From the IMG/VR virus record IMGVR_UViG_3300048578_000133, positions 1 through 27,657 of that record: DNA of 27,657 nucleotides, one strand, 5' to 3'. The position numbers and the translations under genes were made by a program. The first letter of the stretch is position 1, and the number at the start of each line of letters is the position of its first letter. The stretch comes from a virus (lineage: Duplodnaviria; Caudoviricetes). Of the stretch, positions 855-24,492 are shown piece after piece. Below the pieces are notes generated by a model. The model did not search any database and was not told where the DNA came from. It saw only the letters and a list, made by a program, of their open reading frames with translations.

Positions 855-920
855 CCTCGGGGAGCGGTTCGCCAATCCCCACCAATAGAAAGCCATTAGC
901 AATAATGGCTTTCCGTATTT
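855..920 (+). ncRNA. Candidate small RNA: tRNA-acceptor-like minihelix ending in ACCA, followed by a terminator-like hairpin
   Basis: GGGGA (859-863) pairs with TCCCC (876-880); inner GG-TTCG-CC; ACCA at 881-884; consensus promoter directly upstream. Confidence 0.55.
888..920 (+). terminator. Hairpin, probable intrinsic terminator
   Basis: GAAAGCCATTA-GCAA-TAATGGCTTTC: 11-bp perfect stem, GNRA loop on the plus strand, then CGTATTTT. Confidence 0.65.
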
Positions 921-2257
921 TAAAGCAATTCGTTCAGTTTGTCCAGTATGGTTTCAAAAGTGTCTGCCTTTTCAATGTTTACCATTTTGCCTTTGTATTC
1001 AAAATAACATGTCTTAACGTTTTTATAGTGCTTAATTTTAGCATTTACCTGTTTTGCAGCATCAACCAGTGAAGACTTTAAAAAAGATGCTTGGTAATTA
1101 TCCAAATCAATTACAATAAACGTTTCTGCTAAATCTCTTAACTGACCTTGCTTTTTTAGTTTATCGTTAAAAGCGTTAGTTATCGAATTTTTAACAATTT
1201 TACTTTTAGCAACAATCTTGTCTCCAATTACATCGTCAAACTTTAACTCCGGGTTTTTCTGGCCTTTTTTGTGTGGGTTTATTTCAACCTTCTTACCTAG
1301 CCAATCTGTTGCTGTTGTTGCGGTTTTTACGTTACTCACAAGGTCAGTTAAATCAGCAAACATACTTACTTTAACAACTCTTTCTTTTGGTGTTTTAATC
1401 GTATATTTTGGTGCATAATTCTTGCTGTTTTCAAGAGCTTCTCTTAAATCCTGTCTGCCTTGAACCCCACGTTTTGCAAGCTGGAAAAACGGGTGTCTTT
1501 CTTCGCTAAATATTTCTTTAGTTAATGCCACATTGTTTTTAAACTCAGGTGGTATATCAGCAGCGGTTTGTAAAGCATAACACCTACACCTGAAGCGTAA
1601 AGGTGGATAGTGTGTTTTCCAAAAATCAGAATCAATAGCGGCAATAATGTCATTAAGTTTCCTATGCTCATCGCTAACCCGGTTGTCTTCTTGTGTTTTA
1701 AATTTAAGGTTTGGAAAACGCTCTTTATTTTTAACAGCTGTTTCCCAAAATGCAGCCATTTTAGCGCTATGGTTAGCGGTGTCATACTCTGCCTGAAGAT
1801 GATTAATATTGTATTGGTTGTTAAGTTTTAACGCTTCTTTTTTAAACTCTTCAAACGGAACAATTTTACCATCCTTAACCATCTTGCTGTTTAGCTCTTC
1901 AAGCATGGTATATGTTTTTGCACCACTAAACCTATAAAGGTTTTGTTGCAATAGTATTGCATCTCGCGAAGGAAGTTTGGAGTTATTGTTCCAGCCCTTT
2001 CCAAAACCACTTTCAGCACCCTCGTTTAATGTTTCAAAGGTTTTTGTAATTGATTCTCTATTCAGGTCTGTAGGCTTTATTTTGCCTTCGTGCAGGTCTT
2101 TTGCAAGCTGCGTAATAACTTTCTCCCATCCGCTTAAATCAATGGCTAAAACAGTGTTAAAACCACCACAGCAAGGACAGTTTTCAATATTGTAATATGC
2201 CTCAACCTTTTTGTAATAAAACTTTTGCGAAGCTGATATGAGCTGCGCGTTTATTTC
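920..2257 (-). CDS. MuF (Mu gp30/gpF-like) minor head protein with C-terminal CdiA-like nuclease domain; probably the -1 frameshift extension of the portal
   Basis: MuF motifs (LQAEYDTA, D-RV--EH, FW-THYPPLRFRCRC). The frame is open upstream of the tracked TTG at 1951 into the portal 3' end (first upstream stop at 2372-2374) with no ATG/GTG/TTG. C-terminal VEINP..KNPE....GD..IVIDL. Confidence 0.85.
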   Translation of the reverse strand, partial: EINAQLISASQKFYYKKVEAYYNIENCPCCGGFNTVLAIDLSGWEKVITQLAKDLHEGKIKPTDLNRESITKTFETLNEGAESGFGKGWNNNSKLPSRDAILLQQNLYRFSGAKTYTMLEELNSKMVKDGKIVPFEEFKKEALKLNNQYNINHLQAEYDTANHSAKMAAFWETAVKNKERFPNLKFKTQEDNRVSDEHRKLNDIIAAIDSDFWKTHYPPLRFRCRCYALQTAADIPPEFKNNVALTKEIFSEERHPFFQLAKRGVQGRQDLREALENSKNYAPKYTIKTPKERVVKVSMFADLTDLVSNVKTATTATDWLGKKVEINPHKKGQKNPELKFDDVIGDKIVAKSKIVKNSITNAFNDKLKKQGQLRDLAETFIVIDLDNYQASFLKSSLVDAAKQVNAKIKHYKNVKTCYFEYKGKMVNIEKADTFETILDKLNELL

Positions 2258-2277
2258 TTTTTTCCGTCCCCACCTCC
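2227..2277 (-). promoter_or_regulatory. Putative -1 ribosomal frameshift signal (portal to MuF)
   Basis: A-AAA-AAG in the portal frame at 2263-2257; GGAGG 9 nt upstream; imperfect hairpin GCGCAGCT-CATATC-AGCTTCGC 8 nt downstream. Confidence 0.75.
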
Positions 2278-3513
2278 CGAAGGGTTGGGCGCAATAGGTG
2301 CATTTTGTTTTATTCCTAAAATTGGTATTCCGGTAACTTGGGTAATGTATTCTGGGTCTATGTCGTAAAGGCTACCAAATTTTTGAATAGTATCAATAAT
2401 TTGCAGTTGTGTAAGGCTTTCTGTGTTATCCCACTTAAAGTAATGGTTTGCTAGAGGTGCATACACTGGGCTAAGGTTTACCAATACTGGTTTTATTTGC
2501 ATATTAAACACATATTCAAATAGCGTTTTGTCCGCTTCAAACCTGTCTTTTGCAAGTGTAAACTGTATATCAGCACTTCCTACAAATGCTTTCTGATCAG
2601 TTAGCCCGGCACCACCAAGAACACGCTTGCTAAGCTCATCATTGCAAATTTGTATTAGCTTTTCATGAGGCGCAACACCAGTACCTCCAATGTTGCCAAT
2701 TTCAAACTTCTCTTGTCCTTTACCCACCATAAAGTGGTTGCGTTTAAAGTTTGATGCTGCATTAAAAAGCTCTTTTAATCGTGTATCGTCTTCACGGTCT
2801 GTGGTAACAAAAATAGGTGGTACACCAAACTTGTCTATGTAATCTAGAAATGCACCAAAGCCTAATTTTTTAGCCAATATTACTATGGCCATTTGCGAGA
2901 GCATTCCTAACTCATCATCTTTACCAATTTGCACGTATTGTTGCGCAAATGGCCCCTCTCTATAACTCCATCCTGTAGTTGCACCTGAAGTCTTGGTTAT
3001 TATTCCTTTTCTTGTGTTAAAGTGACCACGTGGAATTTCTGTAATTTGTTTGAGCTCACCTTCAGGAGTTAAATCGAAAAACTCAAGAAGCTTTGTGCCT
3101 TCAAATTGGTGTGTTATAACCATTCTGATTAAATCACGCATCCAAGGCCTTTCTAATAACCAACTTATTTCAGTGTTTTCTTTATCCTTTTCGTCAACCA
3201 TTTTAAATTTACTACGTTGGCTGTAAAGCACTCGCGTATCTATAATGGATGAAAGGTGTTGATCCAATAATAAATTACTGTATAAGCTGGCCAATGGTTG
3301 AAAGTCGGGCTCTTTAGGGTCGGTTGCTAAGGCAATGGCCGTTTTAAGGTCTTTAATTGTTTTTGCTGTTAACTCAACGGCCTCATACTCCAGCGTTTTA
3401 CTTGGGCTATCTGTACCTCTTCTAATAGCAGATTCAACTAAAATAGCTCTGTCATCAATCCTTTTAAGAACCTCTCTTTGAATGTAGTTCCAAGCTTTAT
3501 TTTTTAAACTCAT
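2251..3513 (-). CDS. Portal protein (DUF935 / Mu gp29-like)
   Basis: 420 aa; D-HLSS-I-TR, KFGVPP, C-DELSK-VLG motifs; lies between terminase/gp36 and MuF. Confidence 0.88.
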   Translation of the reverse strand: MSLKNKAWNYIQREVLKRIDDRAILVESAIRRGTDSPSKTLEYEAVELTAKTIKDLKTAIALATDPKEPDFQPLASLYSNLLLDQHLSSIIDTRVLYSQRSKFKMVDEKDKENTEISWLLERPWMRDLIRMVITHQFEGTKLLEFFDLTPEGELKQITEIPRGHFNTRKGIITKTSGATTGWSYREGPFAQQYVQIGKDDELGMLSQMAIVILAKKLGFGAFLDYIDKFGVPPIFVTTDREDDTRLKELFNAASNFKRNHFMVGKGQEKFEIGNIGGTGVAPHEKLIQICNDELSKRVLGGAGLTDQKAFVGSADIQFTLAKDRFEADKTLFEYVFNMQIKPVLVNLSPVYAPLANHYFKWDNTESLTQLQIIDTIQKFGSLYDIDPEYITQVTGIPILGIKQNAPIAPNPSGGGDGKKK

Positions 3514-3943: not shown

Positions 3944-5454
3944 AGTCTTTCATTATTTGGCATCATTCTGCCTGATTGATAATTGCCCTGTTTGTTTCCT
4001 ATTGGTATATGTCGCTGTAAAAATTCAACGCACTGATGGTGAGCATCGGGCCAGTCATCATGTGTTTTATATCCCGGCTCTATTCCTAAAAGTTGTGCAA
4101 TACCTACTTGTGTATCGGCATGAGCTTTTTTTGCTTCATTAAAGTAAATACGGCTGTTTTGATACCTTGGTTGCAGCGATAGTATTCGGTCGTATTTATT
4201 GTTTTTAGACACAGTTACCTTGCTAATGTTTAAGTAAATACCATACTCGCGGCTAACTTCGTTTATGGTGCGTTCCACTTCATCATTCCAAAACTGCGCC
4301 TCATACTGCCAATGCACAGTAACGGTTTTTGGTAGTTTAATTTGAAACTCACACATCCACTCAACCGCGGCCCTCATTTTACTTTGTTTACAAAAACAGT
4401 CAATGTGCCAAAAGTCGGTATCTTTTAAACCCATTACCTCCACTGCGTTGTAATCGCTTGTGCTGTTTCCTGCATAAGCAATATCCCAATGGCCAACTAT
4501 AATTTTAAAGTGGTTTAGGTTGGGTATTTTACCCCACTGTATTTGTTCGTTTTTAAAAATATCACCTTCAACATGTGGCTCGTTGTTGTATTCCGCCATT
4601 GCTTGAAGTCTACCGATATCGTCTTCAATTTCTTTAAAATAATTGGCGTGGTATTTTTGGTGCCATGTTGGTTTATACGTTACTGGGTCGTAAGCATTAA
4701 TCCTGTGCTTTTTCCATTTAGGATGGTTTTCTGCCAAAATTGTTTGTATCATTATTGGGTGGAAACCATTGTTTGATTGTATAAACCTACGTATGGGGCC
4801 ATCCATTGTTGGTATTAAATCCTTTTCAATCCATCTGGCTATTTCCTTTTGTCTTTTTGGGTTTTTAATGGTTTCTTTTATCTCTAAATCATCTGCATTA
4901 ATATGTGTTGGCCTACGGTTTTTAACACGTAAACCACGTACACTTTGTCCCATGCCTAATGCTTGACCAATAAACCCGCTTTTGGTAATAAAAAAACCAT
5001 CCTCCCAAGTGCCAAATTGTTTTTGTTCACCAAAGTGAGCTATGATACGCGGGTTCGTTTCAAACTCCGCGCGTAAATCTTCCAATAGCTGCTCAGCGCG
5101 TGGCTCAGAACTACCAATAACAACTAAGTAAACGGGTTCACCACGTAACCACAACCAAAATGGAATAAATATATTATTCCATACCGATTTAGCTAAAGCA
5201 CGTCCCCACCAAGCAAATCCTTTAAATAATGGGTCTTTTGCTACCATTAAGGCAAATTCGGTATGGAAGTCTGCGCACTCACTATCTGCATAATGCGGAA
5301 AGAAGTGTTCAACCATAAATTTGGGGTCGCGTTTGCACTGCTCAACAATGGCTTGCATTTCCGCTGCTGTCTGAAACTCCGGTACACCAGCTGAGCGGGC
5401 AAATTCGAGTTTCTTTTTGTACCGCTCTATGCTCTTCTTATCTGCGGCTTTCAT
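3940..5454 (-). CDS. Terminase large subunit (Mu gp28-like)
   Basis: Deviant Walker A (WGRALAKS), Walker B (INADDLE), RNase H-like nuclease motifs (HWDIAY, HDDWPDA). Confidence 0.9.
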   Translation of the reverse strand: MKAADKKSIERYKKKLEFARSAGVPEFQTAAEMQAIVEQCKRDPKFMVEHFFPHYADSECADFHTEFALMVAKDPLFKGFAWWGRALAKSVWNNIFIPFWLWLRGEPVYLVVIGSSEPRAEQLLEDLRAEFETNPRIIAHFGEQKQFGTWEDGFFITKSGFIGQALGMGQSVRGLRVKNRRPTHINADDLEIKETIKNPKRQKEIARWIEKDLIPTMDGPIRRFIQSNNGFHPIMIQTILAENHPKWKKHRINAYDPVTYKPTWHQKYHANYFKEIEDDIGRLQAMAEYNNEPHVEGDIFKNEQIQWGKIPNLNHFKIIVGHWDIAYAGNSTSDYNAVEVMGLKDTDFWHIDCFCKQSKMRAAVEWMCEFQIKLPKTVTVHWQYEAQFWNDEVERTINEVSREYGIYLNISKVTVSKNNKYDRILSLQPRYQNSRIYFNEAKKAHADTQVGIAQLLGIEPGYKTHDDWPDAHHQCVEFLQRHIPIGNKQGNYQSGRMMPNNERL

Positions 5455-5960
5455 TATCCTAAAGTTTCTGCAACCGCACTAATGTGGTTTTCTTGAAAAT
5501 CTACAGTTTGTAAATACAAATCTTTATCATGCTCGGCCAAGGCTTTAAAAATGGCATCCATTATTTCTAAATAAAGCCGTAAAGAAGGTTTGTTTGATTT
5601 TTCTACCGCTTCTAATGCTTTGCTGTACATCGCTATTTCCTGACCCATTGCTACCGTTTCTTTTTGTAGCATCATTACCTCCATTTTGTCCTTTTTGGCT
5701 TGCGCTTCGGGGATTAACTTAAACAGCTCTAACCTTCTTTCTGTTAATGTTCCGATAACAGTTTTAATGTCTTCAGCTCTTTTTTCGGTAGCATTTAAAC
5801 GGGCTGTTCTTTGTTGCTTCCAATTATCCTTTGGGTCATTAACCCACTTGGTTAATGTTTGAACCGATACTCCTAATATTTGGTGTATTTCGACCTGACT
5901 TTTACCATGCTCTATAAACATGATTTTAGCGGCTGTTTTTAGCTTTTTTGTGTCTGCCAT
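5454..5960 (-). CDS. Terminase small subunit (N-terminal HTH)
   Basis: HTH SQVEIHQILGVSVQTLTKWV; TAATG overlap with the large subunit; ATG at 5960 preferred over the tracked TTG at 5981. Confidence 0.8.
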   Translation of the reverse strand: MADTKKLKTAAKIMFIEHGKSQVEIHQILGVSVQTLTKWVNDPKDNWKQQRTARLNATEKRAEDIKTVIGTLTERRLELFKLIPEAQAKKDKMEVMMLQKETVAMGQEIAMYSKALEAVEKSNKPSLRLYLEIMDAIFKALAEHDKDLYLQTVDFQENHISAVAETLG

Positions 5961-6044
5961 TTGTTGCGATTTGTTACACAAAAAAAGCCCTCAAAATGCC
6001 GTTATTTTTTTTTCAATTCCGAATCGGTAACTGTTTGTTAGTAA

Positions 6045-6067
6045 TTCAGTATCAATTATATACTGAA
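6045..6067. promoter_or_regulatory. Palindromic operator candidate between the divergent late operons
   Basis: TTCAGTAT-N7-ATACTGAA perfect inverted repeat near the centre of the intergenic region. Confidence 0.5.
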
Positions 6068-6144
6068 ACGGAATAGCAATTTTTTTTCAAGATTTAACCA
6101 GTACATTTTTGTTCCATCAAAAGGCAACAAAAACACTTTAAACT

Positions 6145-7371
6145 TTGAAAAAACACTATCTGATTTTAGCAAATGCAGCACGCGATAAAAACCTAGTAGG
6201 TATTGTTGTTTGTGAAGCCAAAGGCACAGTGGCTACTTTTAAAATTCGTGGATATATAGGTAGCGAAAAAAATAACCCGGATGTATTATCACTCCTTGTT
6301 GATGATGCTATTGCTAAAGGCTGTAAAACAGCTGTTGTACAAATTAGCACTCAGGGTGGTAGTGTTTATGATGCCGCAGATATGGTTGCTGAACTTGAGC
6401 GTTTTGGCGAAGGCAATGTAACAGTATATGCAGGAGCATTAGTTGCTAGTGCAGGCACTCGTTTTTTAACCAAGTTTAAAAGTGTTGGCCGCCCCAATTC
6501 GCAGTTTATGATACATAAACCTTCGGCTGGTAGTTATGGAACTGAAACCGATATGGAAAACGGTTTAGTTAGGTTAAAGAATACCACCAATGATTATCGT
6601 GCAGCATACGCCAAAAAAATGCAAATAACCGAAGCACAGGTAGAAGCTCTATGGGCGAATGGAGATAAATGGTTTACCGCAAAACAGGCCCTAGATGCTA
6701 AGCTTATTGATGTTATAGAAGGTACAGCTGAAGTAATAGATACAGAAACAACAGCTATGCTAAGGGCTTGCGGAGCGCCTGTTATTCCTGTTCCCCAAAA
6801 ACAATCAAGTAAAATTATGGATAGAGACGAATTAATCGCATTGCTAGGCTTGGATGCCTCGGCAAGTGATGAGCAAATTAAAGCAGCTATTGCTGCCAAG
6901 AAGCCTGCCACTCAAAATACAGAAATGAATAAAACTGAATTAATTGCCAGTTTAGGACTGGATGCAAATGCGACCGAAGATCAAATTAAGGCCGCAATTT
7001 CTAAAATGAAAACATCCGCATCGGCTCATGATGCTGCGCAGAAGGAAGCGGAAAACCATGCAAAAACAAACGCTGAAAATGCAGTAAAGGCGGCTATTAC
7101 AGCTAAAAAAGTGCCTGCTACACAATTGGAGTCATTAGTTAAAATGTACATGGCTACTCCTAAAGAAACGCAGGCCATGATTGATGCATTACCGGAAGGT
7201 AAGGCACTTAGTGCAGAACTTGACACAGATAAGCCTGCTGACTTAGAAGCATCGCGTAAAGACTGGAAGCTTAGTGATTATTTAGACAAAGACCCAAAAG
7301 CATTAGCTGCTATGGAAAAGGGAGACCCTAAACGATTTAAGCAACTAAACGATGATTACTACGGTGCGTAG
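6145..7371 (+). CDS. ClpP-like prohead protease fused to scaffold protein
   Basis: GGSV, G-VASAG (catalytic Ser), FMIHKP and WFTAKQAL...LID motifs; Ala/Lys-rich helical C-terminal half. Confidence 0.88.
   Translation: MKKHYLILANAARDKNLVGIVVCEAKGTVATFKIRGYIGSEKNNPDVLSLLVDDAIAKGCKTAVVQISTQGGSVYDAADMVAELERFGEGNVTVYAGALVASAGTRFLTKFKSVGRPNSQFMIHKPSAGSYGTETDMENGLVRLKNTTNDYRAAYAKKMQITEAQVEALWANGDKWFTAKQALDAKLIDVIEGTAEVIDTETTAMLRACGAPVIPVPQKQSSKIMDRDELIALLGLDASASDEQIKAAIAAKKPATQNTEMNKTELIASLGLDANATEDQIKAAISKMKTSASAHDAAQKEAENHAKTNAENAVKAAITAKKVPATQLESLVKMYMATPKETQAMIDALPEGKALSAELDTDKPADLEASRKDWKLSDYLDKDPKALAAMEKGDPKRFKQLNDDYYGA
6817..7011 (+). repeat. Tandem duplication (108-nt period) of the scaffold N-terminal motif
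   Basis: MDRDELIALLGLDASASDEQIKAAI (from 6817) and MNKTELIASLGLDANATEDQIKAAI (from 6925). Confidence 0.85.
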
Positions 7372-8314: not shown

Positions 8315-8344
8315 TCACCAATTTAAAATAGGAGACTAAAACAA

Positions 8345-9612: not shown

Positions 9613-9998
9613 CAAAAAGTTTATCAGAATTAAACCAAGAAGCACAAGCGCTACTTGTTAAATATGGTGTAAATAAAATTTACGCCACATCAGATGGCCA
9701 GTTTTTTTTACTGGAGTCTAGAGCGCATTTACATGCGGGCAAAAACCACACTGTTTACCCGATAGAGGCAAACGAAAAAGAGGTTGTTACAAATAGTGCA
9801 GAAGGTGATACAAAAGAAGCATTATCAGTAAAAGCTTTAACAGAGCTTATTGCAGGTGAAAACGACTTAGAAAAAGTACACTTAATGCTACTTGAAGAAA
9901 TTGCCGGACAAAATAGAAAAAGCGCCATTGCGGCCTTCGAAAAACGAATTGCAATTTTAACAGACTTAAGAACTAAGGAGGACATAAAACATGAGTAA
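9609..9998 (+). CDS. Hypothetical phage protein
   Basis: 129-aa ORF overlapping both neighbours. Confidence 0.7.
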   Translation: MTKSLSELNQEAQALLVKYGVNKIYATSDGQFFLLESRAHLHAGKNHTVYPIEANEKEVVTNSAEGDTKEALSVKALTELIAGENDLEKVHLMLLEEIAGQNRKSAIAAFEKRIAILTDLRTKEDIKHE

Positions 9999-11669: not shown

Positions 11670-12014
11670 ATGAAAGTAGATCAAAACAACATGAAGCCTG
11701 TTGATGATTTGGCAAACGAAATCAACGGATGGAAGGCTAAGTATGGCGAACACAATGTTCATCAAGCCGACATTGAAAGTGATGAAGGTATACTTACCTA
11801 CATCATAAGGAAACCCGGTAGAAAAGAGATTGATGCAATGGCACATCACAAATCAAACAATGATGTTACCAAAGCCAATAATGTGCTTATTTCAAACTGT
11901 ATTTTACATGGCGATAAGGATATTATAGAGCGTGATGGTGATGTGTATGCTGAGGTTCTTTTAAAGATATCTGCACTTGTTAAAAAGCGCGAATCGGCAA
12001 TAAAAAAGCTTTAG
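11670..12014 (+). CDS. Tail assembly chaperone (gpG-like)
   Basis: Between tube and tape measure; WKAKYG and RKPGR motifs; ends ATA AAA AAG CTT TAG. Confidence 0.8.
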   Translation: MKVDQNNMKPVDDLANEINGWKAKYGEHNVHQADIESDEGILTYIIRKPGRKEIDAMAHHKSNNDVTKANNVLISNCILHGDKDIIERDGDVYAEVLLKISALVKKRESAIKKL

Positions 12015-12250
12015 CCCGTTGGGAACTTAAACCTCCTGAAAGCCCGGAGGAGGAAAGCCTAAGGGGCTTGGCTCAGGGCGATGCCATAATACAAGTTTGT
12101 TATGGTATCGACCCCGAGAGCCTATCGGACGATGAATGGGCTAAACTCATTCAACAATACAAGTTTGTGGAGCAGCTTAAATCTGTTCAATTCAGAAACA
12201 ATATGAGAATAGTACTGCAAGAGGCACTAAATGCAGTTTTTGGTAATTAA
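12002..12250 (+). CDS. Tail assembly chaperone -1 frameshift extension (gpT-like)
   Basis: A-AAA-AAG at 12002-12008; the -1 frame is open and continuous with tracked ORF 12068-12250 (IDPESLSDDEWA). Confidence 0.82.
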   Translation, partial: KKALARWELKPPESPEEESLRGLAQGDAIIQVCYGIDPESLSDDEWAKLIQQYKFVEQLKSVQFRNNMRIVLQEALNAVFGN

Positions 12251-17563: not shown

Positions 17564-19084
17564 ATGAGAACTAAAGCTGAAATATTAGCATCAGAAACTG
17601 GTTTAGCCAATGGCGATGATTACGAAGCACAACGTTTGGCCATTATAAACGCCCAAACAAGTGCTAATAATGCCGTTTCTATTATGTGGCCCGCAGCCGA
17701 TGAGGCTGCTATGCTTGCTTTAGCCACCGCTAAAAAAGGCCATTTTGCAAAACGTAACGATATACAGAGCGGATTTAAATGGATTTATATTTTAAATCAA
17801 TTGCCTGCTTCAGAACTGGCAAATTGGTCGCCATTTGCCATTTGGTATACTGAAGCTACCGGAGGTACTTTAGATTTTACAGCATTGGCCCAATGTGGCG
17901 AATTTACTAGTAATTCAGAAACGCCTTTCCCAACAACCGGAGGTACTGGAGATGCTGGAGCAATCATGGCAGGTAACACCTTTATCAATACAGGTTCATA
18001 TTGGAACGGTCGTGCCATGTTAATTGCAAAAATTGATACACCGGGAACCAACGCAGATAATTGGGAAGTTATACAGCAATATTTGGGTTATACTCCGATT
18101 AATGTTGAAAACCGCGTTAATGAAGTAACACCAAGTGCAATTAATTTTCCAAACAATGATGCTGTTATTGCTTATTTATCTACTCAACTAAGTGCCTTAA
18201 TTGGTACATTAGGCGAACCCTCAACTACCAAATATGTTGCTGTTAATGATTTGGTGGCCGCATTGGCTGCAAAAGCAGACACCAATACCATTACCGCATT
18301 ACTAAATGGATTTGCCTTTAAAACAACGCCATGCCGTGTTGCAACAACCGAAAACATAACACTAAATGGTTTACAAACTATTGATGAGTTATTAATATCT
18401 GAAGACGATAGTGTTTTAGTTTGGCAACAAACGGATAAAACACAAAACGGTATTTATTTGGCCAAAGATGGTGCATGGGTAAGGCGTGAGGATGCCAATA
18501 CATCACTAAAGCTAAAAGCAGCTACAGTTAGGGTTACTGAAGGCACTGAAAATGCAGACCAACAATTTACCCAAATACATGAAGATGTTATAATAGGAAC
18601 TAACGATATTGAGTTTACCAAGTCAGGAGCCACTGCGGCTTTTGCAACTTTGGTAGGTGTACCGGGTGATAATACTGCATTGGCAGCGGCTTTGCTTTTG
18701 AAAGCTAATGAGGCTGATGTAGTAAAGAAAACAGGAGACCAAACAGTTAACGGAAAAAAGAGCTTTCCAGATGGATTTAGTGGCTCGTATATTAAAGGAA
18801 CAACAATCACAGGTAATGTTACTATTGATGCCTCATTCATAAACAAATACCACTATGTAGAAGCCGCTGCTGTTATCACCATACCTAATGGTGTGATGTC
18901 TGAAGGGAACCAAATAAGATTCATCCGTGACACTTCCGGTGAGGTTCAATTTGTTGTAGGTGGCACAGCAGAATTACGTGTAGCAGGTAATACACGATTT
19001 AGAATTGCTGAACAAAATGCAGCCGTTGAAGTGGTGGCGAAAACATCAACCGTTGTACACATATTAGGAGCATTAAAAGTATGA
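17564..19084 (+). CDS. Tail fibre-like protein, mosaic
   Basis: Internal RVATTENITLNGLQTID...QNGIY...GAWVR..DA domain; VKKTGDQTVNGKKSF fibre repeat; beta-rich C-terminus. Confidence 0.72.
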   Translation: MRTKAEILASETGLANGDDYEAQRLAIINAQTSANNAVSIMWPAADEAAMLALATAKKGHFAKRNDIQSGFKWIYILNQLPASELANWSPFAIWYTEATGGTLDFTALAQCGEFTSNSETPFPTTGGTGDAGAIMAGNTFINTGSYWNGRAMLIAKIDTPGTNADNWEVIQQYLGYTPINVENRVNEVTPSAINFPNNDAVIAYLSTQLSALIGTLGEPSTTKYVAVNDLVAALAAKADTNTITALLNGFAFKTTPCRVATTENITLNGLQTIDELLISEDDSVLVWQQTDKTQNGIYLAKDGAWVRREDANTSLKLKAATVRVTEGTENADQQFTQIHEDVIIGTNDIEFTKSGATAAFATLVGVPGDNTALAAALLLKANEADVVKKTGDQTVNGKKSFPDGFSGSYIKGTTITGNVTIDASFINKYHYVEAAAVITIPNGVMSEGNQIRFIRDTSGEVQFVVGGTAELRVAGNTRFRIAEQNAAVEVVAKTSTVVHILGALKV

Positions 19085-22312: not shown

Positions 22313-23131
22313 ATGACAGATACAACTAAAAAAATGAAAACACCGATTTCTTATTACGGTGGCAAACAAAAACTTGCATCAACAATTGTTAAATTAATTC
22401 CTGAACACAACCTCTACTGCGAACCATTTATAGGAGGTGCTGCTGTTTTCTTTGCAAAGCCGCCTAGCAATGTTGAAGTAATTAACGACACTAATCGCGA
22501 AATGATCAACTTCTATCGGGTTGTACAAAATGATTTCGTAAGCCTCGAAAAAGAGGTTAGAATAAGCTTACACAGCCGTGATGTGCATCGTAGAGCAACT
22601 GTGATATATCACAACCCGGATATGTTTAACGAAATTAAACGAGCTTGGGCCGTTTGGGTTTTAGCTGCTCAAAGCTTTGCCAGCGGTTTGGATAAAGATT
22701 GGGGTTATGATATTAAAAAGTCCACAACATCTAAAAAAGTGGCCAATAAGCGTACTGGCTTTACCGAAGATTATGCAATTCGATTACAGGAGGTACAAAT
22801 AGAGTGTACCGATGCACTTCGTATTATTCGCAGTAGGGATAGCGTAGATTCATTTTTTTATTGTGACCCTCCTTACTACAATAGCAATTGCGGTCATTAC
22901 GATGGTTACACGATAGAAGACTTTGATGCTCTATTGAAATTACTAAGCGAGTGTAAAGGTAAATTCTTATTATCTAGCTATCCAAGCCCTATTTTAAAGC
23001 AATACAGCGCAAAATTCGGTTGGCATACCCAAACACTCGACTTTCAGGTTTCTGTAGCTAATAACCACGGCAAACCGGGTAAACCTAAAACAGAAGTACT
23101 GACGGCTAACTATCCAATTAGCATTAAGTAG
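22313..23131 (+). CDS. DNA adenine methyltransferase (Dam-like, D12 class)
   Basis: YYGGK, EPFIGG (motif I), INDTN and DPPY (motif IV); alternative start at ATG 22334. Confidence 0.93.
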   Translation: MTDTTKKMKTPISYYGGKQKLASTIVKLIPEHNLYCEPFIGGAAVFFAKPPSNVEVINDTNREMINFYRVVQNDFVSLEKEVRISLHSRDVHRRATVIYHNPDMFNEIKRAWAVWVLAAQSFASGLDKDWGYDIKKSTTSKKVANKRTGFTEDYAIRLQEVQIECTDALRIIRSRDSVDSFFYCDPPYYNSNCGHYDGYTIEDFDALLKLLSECKGKFLLSSYPSPILKQYSAKFGWHTQTLDFQVSVANNHGKPGKPKTEVLTANYPISIK

Positions 23132-23154
23132 TTTTTAAAAGCCTTTTAAAAAGA

Positions 23155-23180
23155 AAAAGCCCCTTAATTGGGGCTTTTTT
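23155..23180. terminator. Bidirectional intrinsic terminator
   Basis: AAAAGCCCC-TTAATT-GGGGCTTTTTT. Confidence 0.85.
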
Positions 23181-23201
23181 AATATAATTGAATAAAAAAT
23201 C

Positions 23202-23254
23202 AAATCTCGGACGGTTGGATTTAAAAACTCGGACGATTTGATTTTGCGATTATA
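23202..23254. repeat. Prophage end: two direct repeats (22-bp period), putative transposase sites, ending GATTATA
   Basis: AAATCTCGGACGGTTGGATTT (23202-23222) and AAAACTCGGACGATTTGATTT (23224-23244), then TGCGATTATA. Confidence 0.75.
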
Positions 23255-23259
23255 GAAAG

Positions 23260-24492
23260 TTATTCTAAATCGTATTGTTTAATTTTACGGTACAATGTAC
23301 GTTCGCTGATACCCAATTCTTGTGCCGCTTTTTTCCTTCTTCCGTTGTATTTGTTTAAAGCCTTTTTAATCAGCTCAATTTCTTTGTCTTCAATAGATAA
23401 CGACTCCGGAACCGGAATGGCTTCATTTAACTCAATAACCTGGTTGTTGGGTTGATTATGGCCCATTTGCATGGGTTGTTGGTTAACATTTGGGTGATAA
23501 AATGTTGGTGTTGGAGCAGCCATAGGGCTATTATCCGTAACCGGACTTGCGCCCATATTATCAGGAGCATTCCCATTTTGAATCATACCAAAAACAATAC
23601 TTTTTAAATCGTTCATGTCTTTACGCATATCGTAAAGTACCTTATAAAAAATATCACGTTCGCTCATGCCATGGTCCACATTGGTGCCCATCAGCATAGG
23701 TAAACTTTGGCGTTCGGCAGGCAACACACGTTGCAATTCACTTGCGTTAACAATTTTATCCTCGTCAAGTACACTTAATTGTTCGGCAATATTTTTAAGT
23801 TGACGGATGTTACCCGGCCAAGTATAGTTTACTATCATTTGCGCTGCATCCGGCTCAAGGGTTACGATTTTAGAACGGTATTTTTCCGAAAAATCAGCAG
23901 CAAATTTCCTGAACAATAAATGAATATCTTCTTTACGCTCACGCAAAGGTGGAACCTTGATAGGCACGGTGCTTAATCGGTAGTATAAATCCTCACGAAA
24001 CTTACCACGTGCGGCCAATTCCAGTAAATCTTTATTGGTAGCCGCAACAACCCTCACATCTGTTTTCTGTGTTTTTGATGAACCTACTTTAATAAACTCT
24101 CCACTCTCTAGCACACGTAACAAACGGGCTTGAGTTTCTAATGGAAGTTCACCTACTTCATCTAAAAAAATGGTACCGCCATTTACGGTTTCAAAGTAAC
24201 CTTTACGGGTATCGTGTGCTCCGGTAAACGATCCTTTTTCGTGGCCAAATAATTCAGAGTCGATGGTGCCTTCAGGAATTGCACCACAGTTTACCGCAAT
24301 AAAGTTTCCGTGTTTACGGTTGCTTAAGGCATGTATAATTTTACTAAACGCTTCTTTACCCACACCACTTTCTCCGTTAATTAAAACAGAAATATCTGTT
24401 GGTGCCACTTTAACTGCTGTTTCTAAAGCAATATTAAGCAGGGGAGAGTTGCCTATAATTTCAAATCGTTGTTTTATTTCTTGAATGTTCAT
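23260..24492 (-). CDS. Sigma-54-interacting AAA+ / Fis-family regulator without a receiver domain
   Basis: GESGVGKE Walker A, ELFGHEKGSFTGA, FLDEVGE, FREDLYYRL, WPGNIRQL, C-terminal HTH. Confidence 0.95.
   Translation of the reverse strand: MNIQEIKQRFEIIGNSPLLNIALETAVKVAPTDISVLINGESGVGKEAFSKIIHALSNRKHGNFIAVNCGAIPEGTIDSELFGHEKGSFTGAHDTRKGYFETVNGGTIFLDEVGELPLETQARLLRVLESGEFIKVGSSKTQKTDVRVVAATNKDLLELAARGKFREDLYYRLSTVPIKVPPLRERKEDIHLLFRKFAADFSEKYRSKIVTLEPDAAQMIVNYTWPGNIRQLKNIAEQLSVLDEDKIVNASELQRVLPAERQSLPMLMGTNVDHGMSERDIFYKVLYDMRKDMNDLKSIVFGMIQNGNAPDNMGASPVTDNSPMAAPTPTFYHPNVNQQPMQMGHNQPNNQVIELNEAIPVPESLSIEDKEIELIKKALNKYNGRRKKAAQELGISERTLYRKIKQYDLE

Follow-up and report, generated by a model that had tools for sequence, protein, structure and literature searches.

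A conserved recoding site between the portal and MuF genes of Mu-like phages of Bacteroidota, predicted to yield two forms of portal

The portal gene of a Mu-like prophage of Bacteroidia very probably specifies two proteins by recoding, a short portal of 420 aa and an 864-aa fusion of portal to the MuF head protein. In this phage the recoding is probably a ribosomal −1 frameshift; such a programmed shift had been put forward in the original prediction, and it is supported by the conservation of the frame, slip site, hairpin and GGAGG motif in relatives. As far as sequence comparison can tell, this appears to be a real and conserved recoding site that couples a known kind of mechanism to an undescribed kind of gene, with an interchange of routes like that of dnaX.

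The window analysed here, a stretch of 27,657 nt, comprises the late region of a Mu-like prophage with a contractile tail and, after it, host genes. Terminase, gp36 adaptor, portal, MuF and neck genes lie on the minus strand; a Clp-like protease, capsid, sheath, tube, chaperone and tape measure are encoded on the plus strand. The two blocks, packaging/portal and protease–capsid–tail, diverge from one intergenic region (5454–6145), a layout likewise present in Peternella_1 and unlike the co-linear late operon of Mu. The phage region is closed by a D12-class adenine methyltransferase gene (22313–23260), which host genes for a sigma-54 activator and MiaB adjoin. The proteins closest to the flanking MiaB are named from Bacteroidia or Bacteroidota bacteria; the host is evidently an uncultured member of the Bacteroidia and the phage a Mu-like prophage. 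Its nearest isolated relative is the lytic Winogradskyella phage Peternella_1, with a portal that is 46% identical.

The portal gene (2251..3513, minus strand) gives the 420-aa short product (PF06074, E 1.2e-47, 163 bits against a curated cutoff of 23.9; phrog_113 portal) and ends GGA AAA AAG AAA TAA. Within this end the slippery heptamer A AAA AAG (2257..2263, minus) is in phase, spanning two lysine codons, and the TAA stop (2251..2253, minus) follows one codon past it. An SD-like GGAGG (2273..2277, minus) lies 9 nt upstream of the heptamer, and a hairpin (2227..2248, minus) begins 8 nt downstream, so that the described portal end was correct to the base. MuF follows directly downstream of the portal; its SPP1 gp7-like product matches PF04233 (E 1e-11, 46 bits for MuF1 against a cutoff of 29.6), phrog_220 and phrog_35074. 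The MuF frame runs from stop to stop between 2371 and 920 (minus) and is, as had been stated, the −1 frame relative to the portal, open for about 100 codons without any ATG, GTG or TTG before the TTG at 1951; the first ATG is at 1906. With 445 codons past the slip site (920..2257, minus), the predicted fusion of 419 + 445 = 864 aa was reproduced, including its GDGKK junction, here GDGKK-EINAQ.

This arrangement is of the dnaX/IS3 type, i.e. an X_XXZ_ZZN heptamer in phase inside a two-frame overlap, with an SD-like element 6–17 nt upstream (here GGAGG at 9 nt). The AAAAAAG heptamer alone is common, with 25 copies in the 27.7-kb window; GGAGG followed by AAAAAAG within 6–14 nt occurs once. The SD score of the junction (−13.8) was matched by none of 201 windows in the portal gene. 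The hairpin is modest, consisting of three base pairs, one mismatch, four further pairs and a 6-nt loop; it folds at −8.4 kcal/mol (z −2.36), and 6 of 200 shuffles were equally good. Its distance and energy agree with the values in the available passages of PMC4066793 (3′ structure 4–10 nt past the motif, at least 7.6 kcal/mol), while it narrowly misses the rule given there of four consecutive opening pairs. Among the four nearest loci GGAGG is invariant, and two of the seven hairpin pairs show compensatory changes. A promoter and terminator scan of 1800–2700 returned one promoter-like site against 2.0 expected and no terminator, which gives no sign of separate MuF transcription.

The start-less part of the MuF frame (about 100 codons, 1952..2257, minus), made up of a Cys-rich linker and a helical segment, bears the sequence signature of purifying selection. 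Compared with the related locus L003, 82 of 100 amino acids are identical, and the nucleotide differences by codon position are 16/13/56. The segment also aligns to a natural fusion protein, P0121, from residue 35 of the latter, i.e. 66 residues ahead of TTG 1951. Contigs from sequencing runs X1, X3 and X7 span the junction, run X2 having no coverage there; the RNA-labelled runs were available as contigs and are uninformative on slippage or expression. The X3 and X7 contigs have 22 and 46 mismatches to the window and hence represent other strains. Among the substitutions listed in the start-less part, 8 of 10 hit the third position of a MuF-frame codon (P 0.003), and no indel is among the differences listed for the three contigs; an indel error in the A run had been named beforehand as an outcome that would refute the shift. 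Farther along, part of the C-terminal region of MuF aligns with P0121 up to residue 369. The C-terminal ~200 aa (including 1190–920, minus) had no match in Pfam or PDB, and a PDB sequence search with the MuF frame returned only two weak kinesin matches (E 0.015–0.019). The gene after MuF, at the position where the immunity gene of a MuF polymorphic toxin would sit, encodes a neck protein.

We compared the window with a first set of 211 loci; 15 had no portal end or MuF match, and 197 were scored. MuF lay in a −1 overlap in 153 of these, in the +1 frame in 24 and fused to the portal in 19, with one other arrangement. Clustering at 90% portal identity gave 76 clusters with a majority state of −1 (63), +1 (4) or fused (9), four of them mixed. 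The −1 state persists down to ~38% portal identity, including in the isolated lytic phage Peternella_1. The proposed search of homologues for conserved slippery sites found A AAA AAR or G GGA AAG in phase within the final 60 nt of the portal gene in 62 of 63 −1 clusters, compared with 29 of 430 other gene ends at the same loci, and a run of nine or more A's in 45 of 63 compared with 0 of 430, although the clusters are related by descent and P values overstate their independence. Three +1 clusters without an A run (L016, L072 and L144) have an ATG in the overlap. At the portal end of one cluster, L043, only the tetramer A_AAG precedes the stop, the downstream fold reaches −17 kcal/mol, and an ATG follows 11 nt later. 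Peternella_1 (MT732475.1, 5243–5380) has the split layout with an A10 run; its annotation starts MuF at a downstream codon, ~110 nt beyond the run, and calls the portal a head morphogenesis protein. Cys and His residues cluster in the linker past the slip site (2251–2120, minus), where the window reads CPCC; the first 45 MuF-frame codons include one Cys or more and at least two Cys/His in 59 of 63 clusters, a count without a background. The Cys/His linker is a possible metal site or cleavage region.

The 63 −1 clusters comprise two signal classes, 18 with short runs (A3–A8, the window included) and 45 with A9–12, mostly A10. An SD-like score of ≤ −8 kcal was found in 12/18 short-run clusters versus 4/45 long-run clusters, a downstream fold of ≤ −8 in 15/18 versus 8/45, and both together in 10/18 versus 0/45; within the short class, six clusters have no SD-like motif and three no hairpin of ≤ −8. 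The motif of the 12 clusters that bear it is GGAGG in eight, GGAGA in two and GGGGG in two, with a spacing of 9 nt in 11. Five codons ahead of the shift, glycine is encoded by GGA in 11/13 cases (background 0.29), and none of 500 synonymous randomisations reached the total SD score of 17 clusters (without L171). Two short-class clusters, L004 and L132, carry G GGA AAG with only four A's and so are too short for polymerase slippage. G GGA AAG is the lambda G/GT site, one that polymerase slippage would not use. In 7/18 short-class versus 2/45 long-run clusters, an in-frame ATG lies no more than 90 nt from the portal stop. Named hosts of the long class are almost all Flavobacteriales, and those of the short class include Sphingobacteriales and Chitinophagaceae as well as three Flavobacteriaceae.

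The third frame further separates the classes: it is closed within 10 codons in 45/45 long-run clusters versus 10/18 short-run clusters, the latter being near the 0.48 background from fused ORFs. This is the pattern expected if only long runs slip both ways and short sites slip one way on the ribosome; passages of PMC5009743 and PMC3711429 describe the slippage of Thermus dnaX as going in both directions. The layout expected for transcriptional slippage, a run of at least 8–9 A/T with near stops in both non-productive frames, is present in all 45 split long-run clusters and in all 29 clusters of fused genes described below; it is absent from the window, which has an A6 run and a third frame open for 18 codons. 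The A10 relatives are thus predicted to be of the polymerase-slippage type. The dnaX/IS3-type ribosomal signal originally proposed fits the window, but it does not extend to most relatives, whose A10 anatomy fits slippage by the polymerase. Ribosomal shifting may nonetheless contribute at those long runs that hold an in-phase A AAA AAG (14/45 split long-run and 24/29 fused clusters).

We also found 33 longer homologs of 828–884 aa. A fusion scan built on an alignment of 28 longer homologs yielded 79 loci, of which four were dropped, leaving 70 fused and five −1 loci in 31 clusters, a set that is enriched for fusions by design and in which L266 duplicates L006. At the junction of the 29 fused clusters the run is A10 in 27 and A11 in two. 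In the frame entered on adding one A, a stop follows 1–2 codons later in 29/29 (background 0.25), and the other frame reaches a stop within 3–9 codons. Fused clusters of the first set behave similarly, 7/9 keeping A9–11 and 8/9 having the immediate stop. Natural in-frame fusions, which had been suggested as a check, therefore exist, but they are themselves recoding loci in mirror arrangement: by default such genes are predicted to make the fusion, and they would make the short portal on slipping. The idea that these fused loci are split loci whose A run expanded by error was rejected: after an expansion the former portal stop would lie in the delete-one-A frame, and their nearest stop is in the add-one-A frame.

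Near-identical phages can differ in A-run length (A9–A11) or in nearby indels, with flips between split, fused and +1 states (L156, L032, L149 and the L022 cluster, in the last of which L117, L119, L165, L126, L127 and L208 are cases of run-length flips). The L022 cluster is mixed (41 −1, five fused, one other), as are L021 and L149. Expansion of the A run in a split locus is the likely origin of those members of the L022 and L149 clusters that have A11, and L032 (+1, A11) and L156 (+1, A9) may be variants in run length; slippage on the DNA or errors of assembly may account for A-run differences between near-identical records. A quick tree, drawn for 71 of the 76 representatives (the five without an N-terminal portal were left out), requires 13 changes among the four states, the starred branches forcing at least 7 long, 6 short and 4 fused; the states are clustered on the tree, so the counts are not independent. 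The two-product outcome, short portal plus portal–MuF, appears to be conserved while the route to it changes among four. Both forms are kept, though not necessarily at one ratio, since the default product of split A10 loci is the opposite of that of fused ones; for the same reason a fixed low MuF:portal ratio is not established, the original prediction having been that frameshifting would set the MuF:portal ratio. From these comparisons both short portal and portal–MuF appear to be required, paralleling dnaX.

We propose that a fraction of ribosomes would slip by −1 at A AAA AAG, read on through GAA ATA AAC and complete MuF, such that one gene would give both the 420-aa portal and the 864-aa fusion. 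The slip would be a tandem tRNA-Lys slippage, with the hairpin and perhaps also SD pairing as stimulators. A host with a single tRNA-Lys (UUU) makes A_AAA_AAG shift-prone; pattern searches for tRNA-Lys (CUU/UUU) in the genomes of 10 relatives did not identify tRNAs. The resulting portal rings would be mixed, with MuF entering the head on part of the 12 subunits, and the covalent tether would replace the non-covalent portal–gp7 binding of SPP1, with a head protease possibly releasing MuF. According to the passages available, SPP1 gp7 binds the portal and is present in 1–2 copies per capsid, and gp44 of 80alpha is an ejected, genome-protecting protein of ~2 copies. MuF could therefore plausibly be loaded as a covalent extension of some of the 12 subunits; that MuF functions in this phage like gp7 or gp44 is an extrapolation by analogy. 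The portal of the Mu virion lacks its last 124 residues, which the source, in the part available, attributes to protease cleavage, and the portal–MuF tether may for that reason be temporary. Across the family there would be four routes: the ribosomal shift proposed for the window, slippage at A10 in a split gene, slippage at A10 by which a fused gene yields the short portal and, rarely, a separate ATG.

The phage has a second recoding site, of the G/GT type, in its tail assembly chaperone gene. As previously stated, this gene carries the same heptamer (12002..12008, plus strand), in phase within ATA AAA AAG CTT TAG. Behind the heptamer lies a 59-nt stretch that folds at −26 kcal/mol, and the 82-codon −1 frame ends just before the tape-measure ATG (12002–12250). 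A AAA AAG within an A6 run is kept in 9/9 related prophages whose locus reaches the gene, whatever their portal class (the count leaves out L291, whose locus ends early, L296, a more distant second prophage without the gene, and L302), and it is therefore plausible that A AAA AAG shifts in these hosts. A host-wide switch to slippage was rejected as an account of the A10 portal sites, since the chaperone stays A6 in hosts that have them.

The part played by GGAGG is doubtful. The motif noted beforehand is present and conserved; it may be idle, since Bacteroidia sequester the anti-SD according to passages of PMC10798248. At the Flavobacterium johnsoniae prfB frameshift, the same passages state, the SD is normally unpaired and shifting is equal with or without it. 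A shift that is real but driven by heptamer and hairpin, with GGAGG a relic or active only under stress or infection, is a variant compatible with our preferred reading, and one toward which we lean somewhat less than away from it. It agrees with the sparse use of SD sequences in the window, where only 3 of 25 gene starts score ≤ −6.5, and with the 6/18 short-class clusters that have no motif. Against an idle GGAGG, the 9-nt spacing, the GGA bias and the loss of the motif in the long-run class argue for selection at the RNA level, and every member of the Chitinophagales, Sphingobacteriales and Bacteroidales that was examined still carries the prfB SD (passages of PMC10798248). SD-like sequences (−6.5 to −10.7) precede 3 of 22 phage late genes scored, including that of the tail sheath (8325–8344, 9971–9990 and 19061–19080, plus strand), even though SDs are normally ignored in this host class; most others score 0.

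The other explanations dispense with a ribosomal shift in this phage. Slippage of RNA polymerase, adding one A to the mRNA, would bring the window into line with the 45 of 63 related −1 clusters that have A9–12 runs, yet its own A6 run falls short of the 8–9 or more given for efficient slippage in passages of PMC5009743 and PMC3711429, its third frame is open, near relatives use G GGA AAG, and both SD-like motif and hairpin stand at ribosomal spacings; we consider this route improbable. About as little weight falls on an independent MuF gene coupled to portal termination and started at ATA 2254, an ATT, TTG 1951 or ATG 1906. ATA 2254 does overlap the portal stop, Bacteroidia need no SD, three related clusters do start MuF separately, and a nearby ATG exists in 7/18 short-class clusters. 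However, the ATA is unconserved (GTA in L004, L005 and most others), starts at 1951 or 1906 would drop at least 66 residues that are homologous to the fusions and under purifying selection, and the clusters that initiate separately are those that lost the slip site. Nor would independent initiation explain the slip site in 62/63 clusters and the mirror fusions. Least probable, and very unlikely in our judgement, is an assembly error, prophage decay or DNA-level phase variation in the homopolymer of a normally fused gene. The few clusters that mix states by run length (L022, L021, L149) would speak for it, but they belong to the A10 class and the window has only A6; moreover, contigs from three runs, two of them with 22–46 substitutions, list no indel, and the −1 state holds to ~38% portal identity and in Peternella_1.

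Among known systems, the ribosomal −1 shift of E. coli dnaX (tau/gamma) is closest to the proposed site, with the same A_AAA_AAG heptamer, a 5′ SD-like element and a 3′ stem–loop. Passages of PMC5009743 and PMC3711429 further describe an interchange of ribosomal and transcriptional routes (slippage in Thermus thermophilus) and of one- and two-ORF layouts (the latter in Antonov et al., 2013), and, at slippage-type dnaX genes, stops in both non-zero frames as at the A10 portal loci. Unlike dnaX, the present case concerns a phage portal gene with a MuF head-protein extension in a host class that sequesters its anti-SD, as predicted from sequence. The lambda-type G/GT shift likewise gives short and C-terminally extended products of a phage assembly gene, but G/GT chaperones are absent from the virion in the accounts available, whereas the portal is its dodecameric vertex; and the chaperone site is A6 in all nine relatives, whereas the portal site switches class. 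Extensions by which a fraction of a virion protein gains an extra domain are described, in the passages available, for capsid and tail-shaft proteins of T3/T7, A2, A118, A500 and PSA; these are mostly outward Ig-like domains, compared with an internal MuF domain on the portal here. Portal and MuF are also adjacent or fused elsewhere, as single-ORF fusions in the Microbacterium EA3/EA5/EA8 and EB phages and phrog_35074 (an 890-position fusion family) and as separate MuF genes beside the portal in SPP1 (gp7) and 80alpha (gp44). The passages available describe no recoding for these, whereas the Bacteroidota fusions keep a slip site that would also yield free portal.

A literature search over titles, the starts of abstracts and passages of open-access texts returned no account of a recoded portal gene; such a case could be listed in the cluster tables of PMC3711429 or PMC4066793. 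The word 'frameshift' is absent from the available parts of PMC5576092 and PMC8776804, 'portal' from 300,000 of the 449,034 characters of PMC5009743, and both 'portal' and 'DUF935' from the available part of PMC3711429. Parts of PMC7302621, PMC7290940 and PMC11915804 were also drawn on.

If the proposed recoding is correct, the portal, a core virion vertex, would join the short list of recoded phage genes, and a mechanism would be at hand for loading a MuF/gp7-type protein into heads. Systematic misannotation is implied, in that split loci are called with a truncated MuF (e.g. Peternella_1) and fused loci miss the short portal. The site would be a second test case, beside prfB, for use of the anti-SD during elongation in Bacteroidia, and the family would offer a large natural series on the replacement of ribosomal by transcriptional recoding and vice versa, dnaX-like but with many more switches. 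We incline slightly toward a broader view, in which Bacteroidota Mu-like phages must build a two-form portal ring and have switched repeatedly among four routes to it, in which the portal–MuF fusions of this group in databases are unrecognised recoding genes, and in which the internal SD of the ribosomal class is selected even though the anti-SD is hidden, the latter being freed during elongation or late infection.
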